Shown here piece after piece: positions 4,632 to 61,965 of a stretch of DNA of 64,000 nucleotides. The position numbers were made by a program, and so were the translations under genes. Source of the DNA: Octopus vulgaris (lineage: Eukaryota). The stretch is from NCBI GenBank assembly GCA_951406725.2, contig OX597819.1:96844001-96908000 (forward strand), given 5' to 3'. The first letter of the stretch is position 1; every line of letters begins with the position of its first letter. The notes beneath the pieces are model-generated. The model did not search any database and was not told the origin of the DNA. It saw nothing but the letters and a program-made list of their open reading frames with translations.

Positions 4632-4830
4632 ATGAGGCCTGAAAATTTTGAGGGATGGGGCTAGTCGATTGCTTCCACCCCAGATCTTAACTGGTACGTA
4701 TTTTATCGACCTCGATAGGATGAGAGATTAAGTCGGCCCCAGCAGAATTTGAAGTCAGAACGTAAAGCTGGAAGAAACACCGCTAAGCATTTCGTCCGGC
4801 GTGCTAACGATCCCATAGATCGCAGCCTTA
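4632..4830 (-). mobile_element. Meta-domain-like SINE, diverged
   Basis: ACTGGTAC..TTTTATCGACC..ATAGGATGA...GAATTTGAAGTCAGAACGTAAAG...GCTAAGCATTTCGTCCGGCGTGCTAACG, as in the other family copies. Confidence 0.8.
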
Positions 4831-5079: not shown

Positions 5080-5800
5080 GTTTCATGCTGAATGTATCAC
5101 TGCTCAATCAGTTCCTGTTTATCACACTCACCTGCATTTCAATAAATCTAAGGTGTATAACGACTCCCTTTTCACCCTCTCATTCGTTTCCAAGTGGAAC
5201 TTGGAAAAGTCGATGGGGTTTTTGCGGAAGAGAAAAGTGCCTGTCTTCAGTCCTTTCAGTTGCATTCACAACACTTCTTTCATCATAGCCACCTGACAGA
5301 AGAAAAACTTCCTGTCCTTCCTGACCAAAAGAAAACAGTGGACGATCTTGATGGCGGACTCGTCTTAACCTCCACAACAATTGTTCTACAAAATTCCACG
5401 AGTCAGCAATGCTCGGACACAACGTGTGCAAGCGGAGCGGTTTCGTTGCTTTGCACATATTTCAGACATACTTAATTGATGGCACGTTCGTGCCTGTAAA
5501 ATTTATCTCTAACCGGTAATACCCCTCCTCTCTAAGAACAGTTCGATGAATAATTTCTGCAAATTATCCTTAGTACATGGACCGAAATTCTCCAGAGTAA
5601 ACCTGCCGTTCATTCTTGTGGCTACCTAGAATGTTGCCGCAGTTCCTCACCATTAGTCTTCTATATTATGCTAACGACTAGGTTCCACCGACCGTACTAC
5701 GTGACTAGTAGAGTGTTGTGCGCATTTAATAATATTCCTGACGTCAGGTCTTCTCTTGACATGAGATGGAAGCTCTGTCGAACAGACGAGCTAACTACTA
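5080..5800 (-). pseudogene. L1/Tx1-type LINE ORF2 C-terminal relic
   Basis: Frameshifted minus-strand peptides VQSNET..., CPSIADSWNFVEQLL (zf-RVT-like), LKGLKTGTF and NPIDFSKFHLETNERVKRE; a similar segment lies on + at ~22560-22780. Confidence 0.6.
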
Positions 5801-56725: not shown

Positions 56726-57438
56726 TAAAGATCAATTAGCGGAAAAGATTTCAATCTGAAAAACAACCAGCGGCTATTGCAAATTCTACGACTGTTCTAC
56801 ACTCAAACACTGAAAGCACTAAAAGAAAAATGGCATTGTTTACTTTGGCGTCATTAGAAATTGGATCAATCTCGGTTCATTGGAACTGTCGCCTTAAACT
56901 ATTCAATAATTTAACTGGAAGAATGGTAGTTTGCAGTCAAAGTTAATTGAAATCCAAAACACACAAACAGGAGATGCTAAAACAATCATAAACTACTTCA
57001 AAAACATTCTTGAAATCCATGGAGAAATAGGAAATTGCGTTCAAGAGTATTAACTGTTCTACGTAATGGAAGAATGTGTTTAAAAAGAAAACAGTTATTC
57101 GTATATTTTCAGTTGTGATTGGAAAGCAATAGAGTCGTTGGTTACAAGCTTAATGTATTTGTGGTGTTGGGAGTGACAGTGGCGTGTGGAGTGTCACAGG
57201 ATGTCAAGTTTCTCAACGATGATTATGTCTTTCGCCAATCTATATTGTCAAAAGTTACACAAAAACACATGCACACAATTTTAATATATGTTTATATATA
57301 TATATTACGTAGATGTACTCGCATAGCAAGTAATTTGATCTGAGATCGTGTGCTGAAACGAAAACAATTGCAGCGTGTTTATAAGCCATTTAAGAAACAC
57401 ACAAAAGCCGTTCGATTCACTTCAACATTTAAGTTTAA

Positions 57439-57488
57439 TTTGTCAAAATATTTTCGTCGCTAAAATCCGCGACCTGTTCACTGACAAA
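57439..57488 (-). ncRNA. Candidate minimal type-I hammerhead ribozyme with G3-C8 core variant
   Basis: UUUGUCA-GUGAACA-G-GUCGC(GGAUUUUA)GCGAC-GAAA-AUAU-U-U-UGACAAA: 7-bp stem I, 5-bp stem II, palindromic stem III AAUAUU. Confidence 0.55.
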
Positions 57489-57517
57489 AAACTACTTACC
57501 ACACAGCCACTCCTGCA

Positions 57518-57559
<42 letters not shown>

Positions 57560-57573
57560 CATACATACATACA

Positions 57574-57620
<47 letters not shown>

Positions 57621-57621
<1 letters not shown>

Positions 57622-57752
57622 GGTGCAGGAGTGGGTGTGTGGTAGGTAGTTTGCTTACTAACAACATGGTTCCGGGTTCAGTCCCACTGAACCGACCAAA
57701 GCTTTGTGAGTGGATTTGATAGACAGAAACTGAAAGAAGCCCATCGTATATA

Positions 57753-61760: not shown

Positions 61761-61965
61761 CCGCGTGTGTACCGTTGGCGATGTTTTTCCTCCGTCTTCC
61801 CTTCTTTAGATCTTTCCTTTTCCTCAGTTTCTGACGAAGAGCTCCGCTCGAAACGTTAAATCCTCCTTCTTTCCTTCTTTCCTGAGCGTCCAATAATACT
61901 ATACTTGTTCCACGTCCTCACGTTGTTGTGTTTTCTCTTTGTGTTTTCATGTTTGGATTAACTAT
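61755..61965 (+). mobile_element. Short microsatellite-flanked repeat containing a hammerhead-like motif (Penelope-like terminal repeat or retrozyme candidate); partial direct copy at 61269-61345
   Basis: GUUU-CUGACGA-A-GAGC(UCC)GCUC-GAAA-CG-U-U-AAAU at 61827-61861; TTTCCTGAGCGTCCAATAATA.TATACTTGTTCCACGTCCTC...CATGTTTGGATTAACT occurs twice, ~610 bp apart. Confidence 0.6.

Follow-up and report, generated by a model that had tools for sequence, protein, structure and literature searches.

A hammerhead-like motif with a G3-C8 core fixed in a Penelope-like element family of Octopus vulgaris

Hammerhead-like motif in a truncated Penelope-like element

The window analyzed here is a 64,000-nucleotide stretch of the Octopus vulgaris genome (assembly GCA_951406725.2, contig OX597819.1, positions 96,844,001 to 96,908,000). 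Its minus strand contains, at 57488-57439, a motif with the layout of a type I minimal hammerhead ribozyme in which core positions 3 and 8 are G and C. The motif belongs to a 5′-truncated copy of a Penelope-like element, designated family A, and this copy is a dead, solitary fragment (Table 1). The block aligns over its full length to the junction between the 5′ pseudo-long terminal repeat (pLTR) and the open reading frame (ORF) of a long copy, L100, and all 40 relatives scored were 89-100% identical to it. The ORF opening in L091 and L100 is the same DNA as the window from 57389 downward. A sequence-only reading had described the block 57306-57490 as non-coding; it is in fact coding in part. 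That reading had also proposed a ribozyme-bearing retroelement family. The retroelement was found, and it is not a free-standing retrozyme: the motif is joined to a pLTR end, a 5′ untranslated region (UTR) and the first codons of a coding element. The two 3′ end points of insertions, between which the optional tail lies, are by analogy with a known system likely to be two internal start sites of reverse transcription.

Table 1. Features of the element copy and of its hammerhead-like motif (window coordinates).
Feature	Position	Strand	Remarks
5′-truncated Penelope-like element copy, family A	57305..57491	-	hammerhead, 5′ UTR spacer, ORF start, tail
Stem I, 5′ arm	57482..57488	-	7 bp with 57439-57445
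Catalytic core G3-U4-G5-A6-A7-C8-A9 (GUGAACA)	57475..57481	-	G3 = 57481, C8 = 57476
Extra nucleotide G between A9 and G10.1	57474	-	trait of Penelope minimal hammerheads
Stem II (5 bp, closed by G10.1-C11.1) and variable 8-nt loop 2	57456..57473	-	57473-57469 with 57460-57456
G12-A13-A14, palindromic stem III AAUAUU, U17	57446..57455	-	57455-57453, 57452-57447 and 57446, respectively
Predicted cut	57446/57445	-	placed by hammerhead rules
Stem I, 3′ arm	57439..57445	-	pairs with 57482-57488
Reverse transcriptase-endonuclease ORF start	57305..57389	-	ATG 57389; 7-nt deletion after codon 4; ends at tail end
Optional tail between two 3′ end points of insertions	57305..57364	-	in 46/97 sampled arms, absent from others
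(TA)n-rich target at 3′ junction	57282..57305	.	(TA)n at the end of most copies

Textbook accounts of the hammerhead include a C3-G8 pair in its active fold. The motif does not match the literal consensus C3UGANG8A; it retains U4, G5, A6, A9 and G12-A14, and positions 3 and 8 form a Watson-Crick pair, which is G-C in family A and C-G in two relatives described below, family B and L213. Several traits of type I minimal hammerheads are present, namely a core enclosed by stems I and II, the G10.1-C11.1 pair, GAAA and UH. The 7-bp stem I, the 5-bp stem II, the core, GAAA, the palindrome and U17 were all located where the sequence-only reading had put them. A descriptor that accepts any Watson-Crick 3-8 pair and stems I and II of at least 4 bp gave a single match in 150 dinucleotide shuffles of the window searched on both strands, and no shuffle match had stem I of at least 7 bp together with stem II of at least 5 bp.

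The predicted fold of a 57-nt minus-strand segment holding the motif consists of stems I and II (z = -3.2, with 2/200 shuffles equally good), and the G10.1-C11.1 pair has a predicted probability of 0.996. Since the plus strand also folds well (z = -4.0), folding alone does not fix the strand; it is fixed by the core letters and the ORF. Matches to Rfam microRNAs near the site were rejected, as they arise from microsatellite palindromes and lie below the gathering score.

G3-C8 core is fixed in thousands of copies

A 20-mer that spans the core matches the genome (G000, 2.8 Gb) exactly at 5,777 places and its control at none, so that the motif is not single-copy. With a looser pattern for the swapped core the number of matches was 9,011, compared with 671 when the pattern was reversed as a control; by eye, 97 of the first 100 listed were assigned to family A. 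When the core was left free in the search, 5,653 copies were recovered. Counting by eye in the first 100 of them identified G3 in 99 and C8 in 96. An old subfamily defined by loop 2 (570 matches) had G3 in 89 and C8 in 87 of its first 100 matches, among which C3-G8 was absent. No family A copy with C3-G8 was present among the listed core-free copies, the variants lacking C8 or the old-subfamily matches. The proposal that the block represents a retroelement family with a non-canonical core was thus borne out: the core of the predicted ribozyme is fixed in the family.

Contig loose ends of sequencing runs X1, X15 and X17, which have three different organism labels, carry the same G3-C8 core; the family is therefore not confined to this assembly. 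In one insertion, L198, position 8 and loop 2 are not the same in the two arms, as though each arm had been copied from a template of its own.

Constraint was analyzed in 127 arms from 90 loci chosen on a downstream marker, a shared variant being one present in at least 10% of arms and outside CpG. Conservation of core and stems, expected if the motif is under selection, was observed: shared variants occur in 0/42 core and stem columns and in 11/69 columns of the leader, loop 2 and spacer (Fisher p = 0.004, an optimistic value because the four loop-2 columns involved may be one or two events). All 12 core columns are free of shared variants, loop 2 carries four of the shared subfamily variants, and 7/87 ORF columns have one. 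U17 is present in 106/107 arms.

The element and its protein

In L100 (G000:C4:22952000-22961900), a copy with the arrangement pLTR-ORF-pLTR, the motif is present in both pLTRs on the sense strand. The first motif is at position 4742, and the ATG lies 56 nt downstream of the predicted cut site; the ORF is frame-broken. The second motif follows 4,261 bp after the first; beyond it come the tail, (TA)n and a truncated arm in inverted orientation. Longer copies, when followed in the upstream direction, revealed a microsatellite-rich 3′ region, then a GIY-YIG endonuclease and then a reverse transcriptase. The protein has a YVDD reverse transcriptase motif, DKS at the DKG position, a CX3CxxC linker and the GIY-YIG endonuclease at its C-terminus. 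L093 has an open stretch of 1,025 aa containing both YVDD and GIY-YIG, and a piece of L063 scored 23.1 bits with Pfam PF01541, barely above the cut-off of 22.6. No whole unbroken ORF was found among the family A copies retrieved. The closest named protein relatives of the element are from Octopus vulgaris. The C-terminal 310 residues are 97-98% identical among dozens of copies, and family A has therefore been mobile recently.

Penelope-like traits comprise pLTRs in partial tandem, the inverted 5′-truncated arm of L100 and the optional tail. The linker is CX3CxxC in family A and CX4CxxC in family B and L213, both of the CX2-5CxxC form that precedes the endonuclease in the Neptune/Nematis type (Craig et al., PMC8557442). 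By its protein features family A fits a Penelope-like element of this type; the tree described below included no clade-labelled reference. Naiad had been considered on account of its lack of hammerheads and its (TA)n targeting; Naiad and Chlamys were ruled out since the endonuclease is C-terminal, not N-terminal, and the motif is DKS, not DKA. A non-LTR retrozyme was also rejected: the copies contain ORF sequence and occur in dispersed or inverted arrangement, and the direct spacing in L100 is 4,261 bp.

Relatives and polarity of the swap

In a tree of 54 sequences, family B (55% protein identity) groups as the sister of family A (support 1.0). It includes several near-identical full-length elements with intact ORFs of 1,312 aa (L245-L248 and L254; e.g. 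G000:C17:6329500-6339400). Its full-length copies have a hammerhead in both pLTRs with C3-G8 and with the same extra nucleotide and spacing as in family A. Stem II of family B has an A-U pair at the position of a G-C pair in family A; compensatory changes in the stems are thus seen between families and not within family A. A scan of metagenomes found two relatives, one of which extends into its pLTR; in this relative, L213 (41%), the core is canonical (C3-G8-A9) and stem III is palindromic, the motif lying 37 nt after the stop codon.

Because family B and L213 have C3-G8 at the matching place, G3-C8 in family A is, as judged from these comparisons, a derived double change. This polarity rests on parsimony and on the published consensus, as the core state is known in three lineages only.

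A scan with positions 3 and 8 left free over 1.05 Mb of collected loci identified 98 distinct motifs. Nineteen of these fell outside the filter for families A and B: six further A copies, eight C3-G8, three U3-A8, one U3-G8 and one C3-C8, the last of which looks like a chance occurrence. Minimal hammerheads with U3-A8, one of them with U3-G8, are present in other repeats (L070:4350, L077:2670, L157:441 and L062:875), and the genome therefore holds C-G, U-A and G-C forms of the 3-8 pair. The window itself has a canonical C3-G8 minimal hammerhead on the plus strand at 61825-61862 (core from 61831) in a different repeat, with similar copies in L016, L064 and L167.

Comparison with known hammerheads

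The order of elements, the extra nucleotide, G10.1-C11.1 and the rudimentary palindromic stem III are as in the minimal type I hammerheads of Penelope pLTRs reported by Cervera and de la Pena (2014, PMC4209133). The same work describes U-rich 5′ and AU-rich 3′ flanks, occurrence in both pLTRs and many solitary truncated copies, all of which are found in family A. It reports C3-G8 and U3-A8 cores, and the rows of its Fig. S3 that were available start with C3 or U3, whereas the core of family A is G3-C8. The extra nucleotide after A9 is G instead of the consensus H, and stem I is longer (7 bp). The descriptor used in that study requires cuganga, in agreement with the expectation that such motifs would be missed by CUGANGA searches.

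The Poseidon element PAc of the anole (Frangieh et al. 2024, PMC11167929) shares with family A a hammerhead at the junction of 5′ UTR and ORF, two 3′ end points, an optional tail of ORF sequence, AT-rich targets and an uncut RNA template. PAc belongs to the Penelope/Poseidon clade and its ORF begins in stem II, in contrast to the CX2-5CxxC linker and the ORF start 56 nt past the cut in family A. The double change C3G/G8C is a laboratory mutant of PAc that partly restores cleavage of a hammerhead dependent on the protein of the element; in family A it is the wild type.

Natural core variants, too, show Watson-Crick covariation between positions 3 and 8 (Perreault et al. 2011, PMC3088659); the pair reported there is U3-A8, unlike the G3-C8 of family A. 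The type I hammerheads of animal non-LTR retrozymes are related to those of Penelope pLTRs (bioRxiv 10.64898/2026.07.22.740005); retrozymes, however, are short non-coding tandem units, whereas family A copies derive from a coding element as fragments that are dispersed or inverted. The available parts of that preprint and of PMC11014351 contain nothing on a G3-C8 pair. In the literature searched, as far as its text was accessible and with the survey of Lunse et al. 2017 outside its scope, laboratory mutants and natural U3-A8 variants were found and no natural G3-C8 hammerhead.

Proposed activity of the motif and alternative explanations

We favor, with some reserve, the explanation that the motif is a pLTR hammerhead with a flipped 3-8 pair which would cleave slowly after U17 and would need dimerization through stem III or the protein of the element. 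The position of the motif in the pLTRs, the protein features, the C3-G8 cores of relatives, the sparing of core and stems by shared variants and the G3-C8 state of the old subfamily speak in its favor, as do the known biochemical data. G8 acts through its 2′-OH (PMC6155905, PMC8495972), and the base at position 8 should therefore be replaceable as long as the 3-8 pair is kept. A pairwise mutational scan identified the G:C swap as the sole rescuing double change in this region (PMC9901934). A G3-C8 variant is described, with data not shown there, as less active with C17 than with G17 (PMC3884650). The role of the G8 2′-OH, the partial rescue by C3G/G8C, a predicted G3·U17 wobble, a dimer predicted to be weak and U17 itself lead us to expect slow, assisted cleavage. 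In the proposed sequence of events, the 3-8 pair of a Penelope-like pLTR hammerhead was flipped from C-G to G-C, and self-cleavage would require either the pairing of two copies by way of the palindromic stem III or the help of the protein in folding. The element mRNA would start about 58 nt upstream of the cut site. Reverse transcription would begin at the two tail sites, within the ORF, and proceed to the RNA 5′ end, and uncut RNA would thus give rise to thousands of short hammerhead-bearing copies such as that in the window. A cut would take off the capped 5′ segment of 58 nt or divide tandem read-through RNA. It would thus restrain or process a fraction of the RNA and would not be obligatory for transposition.

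A number of results weigh against this explanation. Not one of 97 sampled copy 5′ ends falls within 2 nt of the cut site, where local background predicts about 1.7, and 69/97 lie upstream of the core; a genomic fossil of cleavage, that is copies starting at the cut, was thus sought and not found. Among variants lacking C8 (first 100 of 356), G8 accounts for 42, T8 for 38 and A8 for 20. This predominance of G8 exceeds the expectation from neutral decay and suggests that a part of the copies derives from templates in which the pair was broken as G3·G8. The very active family B has fixed A9C (young copies have C9, the older copy L229 the canonical A9), so that constraint on the core may be relaxed in the clade. 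In the folding prediction G3 pairs with U17 (P = 0.67), which lengthens stem I across the cut site, and the predicted dimer falls short of two monomers in stability by 2 kcal/mol; the palindrome itself is invariant. Within family A the stems show no compensatory change, and the p value for constraint is, as noted, optimistic. Finally, hammerhead mutants of the anole element insert normally in vitro (PMC11167929).

The distribution of copy ends bears on the RNA that was copied. Forty-three of the 97 ends lie 46-79 nt upstream of the cut (41 of these at 50-62 nt) and two extend further; 24 fall on the beginning of stem I or close to it (some of these being alignment breaks at a variable T run), 16 are inside the motif and 12 are downstream. 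As no end lies within 2 nt of the cut and most are upstream of it, the templates appear to have been uncut, mostly with a common 5′ limit about 58 nt before the cut. This limit is likely to be the transcription start. G precedes it in 17/28 truncated arms (8/16 in an unbiased sample), a signal of a cap G that is suggestive only, because many junction Gs come from the inverted arm and a control class of junctions has G in 6/10. The same test was uninformative in family B, as its loci were picked for full length. The limit also resembles a 3′ splice site (CTAAC, a pyrimidine tract and AG), and an intron terminating at helix I is described in Drosophila virilis (PMC4209133). In L100 the corresponding segment (4696-4722) has features of an initiator-like start as well as of a 3′ splice site and its branch point. 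The pattern of ends fits the model of PMC11167929, which has reverse transcription initiated at two internal sites of the ORF, with uncut RNA as the principal substrate.

Much of this could also be explained if the motif were a relic that no longer cuts, its fold being retained for a role in the 5′ UTR or in protein binding, and G3-C8 having arisen by drift through inactive single changes. We regard this as possible and clearly less probable. It would account for the derivation of every sampled insertion from uncut RNA, for the excess of G3·G8 variants, for A9C in an active sister family, and for the G3·U17 wobble and the weak, all-A/U stem III. That cleavage is dispensable for insertion in vitro speaks for it as well, as does the fact that Naiad elements thrive without canonical hammerheads (PMC8557442). 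A relic kept only for its fold, however, would not be expected to leave all 12 core columns, and not the stems alone, free of shared variants, nor would the sole fixed double change be expected to coincide with the one known to rescue activity. G3·G8 amounts to 4/100 in the old subfamily, where no long-lived unpaired stage is visible, and its candidacy as ancestral intermediate is unsupported.

An efficient ribozyme that licenses translation in vivo, the cut 56 nt before the ATG freeing the ORF from read-through or tandem RNA for cap-independent initiation, appears unlikely. The predicted cut lies within the 5′ UTR, at a distance of about 58 nt from the presumed RNA start, which invites comparison with chrysovirus hammerheads; these occupy positions 58-60, and translation is driven by their cleavage (PMC13725137). 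Cut RNA would retain the start sites of reverse transcription, yet none of the 97 copies starts at the cut, and Penelope minimal hammerheads are poor cleavers in vitro (PMC4209133). Least probable by far is a chance look-alike in an ordinary repeat, or a stand-alone retrozyme. The Rfam covariance models gave no hammerhead match at the motif up to E = 10, but they also fail to match the canonical minimal hammerhead of L213, which leaves the blank result with little weight. Stems as long as these occurred in none of the 150 shuffles, the motif occupies the same place as the canonical hammerheads of related elements, and it is part of a protein-coding element and not of a short tandem unit; the comparison with the sister family has already largely refuted this possibility.

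Sequence at the 5′ junction of the window copy

Directly at the 5′ junction of the window copy, at 57489-57652, a 67-nt inverted repeat flanks a (TA)n(TACA)n tract. One of its arms presumably belongs to a common repeat resembling short interspersed elements, and this arm may have been inverted during insertion.

Significance

The G-C swap is known in the literature searched only as an engineered rescue. Here it is natural and fixed in a family that has a canonical sister, which provides evolutionary support for the tertiary 3-8 pair and a ready pair of ribozymes for testing. The standard descriptor overlooks about 8,000 motifs in this genome. The copy ends bear on the role of Penelope hammerheads, as the templates of new copies appear here to be uncut.

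We consider it about an even chance, from the comparisons made, that an active natural G3-C8 hammerhead is fixed in thousands of copies of a recently mobile retrotransposon, alongside a C3-G8 sister family and U3-A8 families in one genome. If so, evolution would be able to cross the fitness valley between forms of the 3-8 pair, and censuses based on CUGANGA would miss whole Penelope families, perhaps including some elements scored as free of hammerheads. It would also mean that the core has been tuned down on purpose, with most of the RNA of the element remaining capped and uncut.
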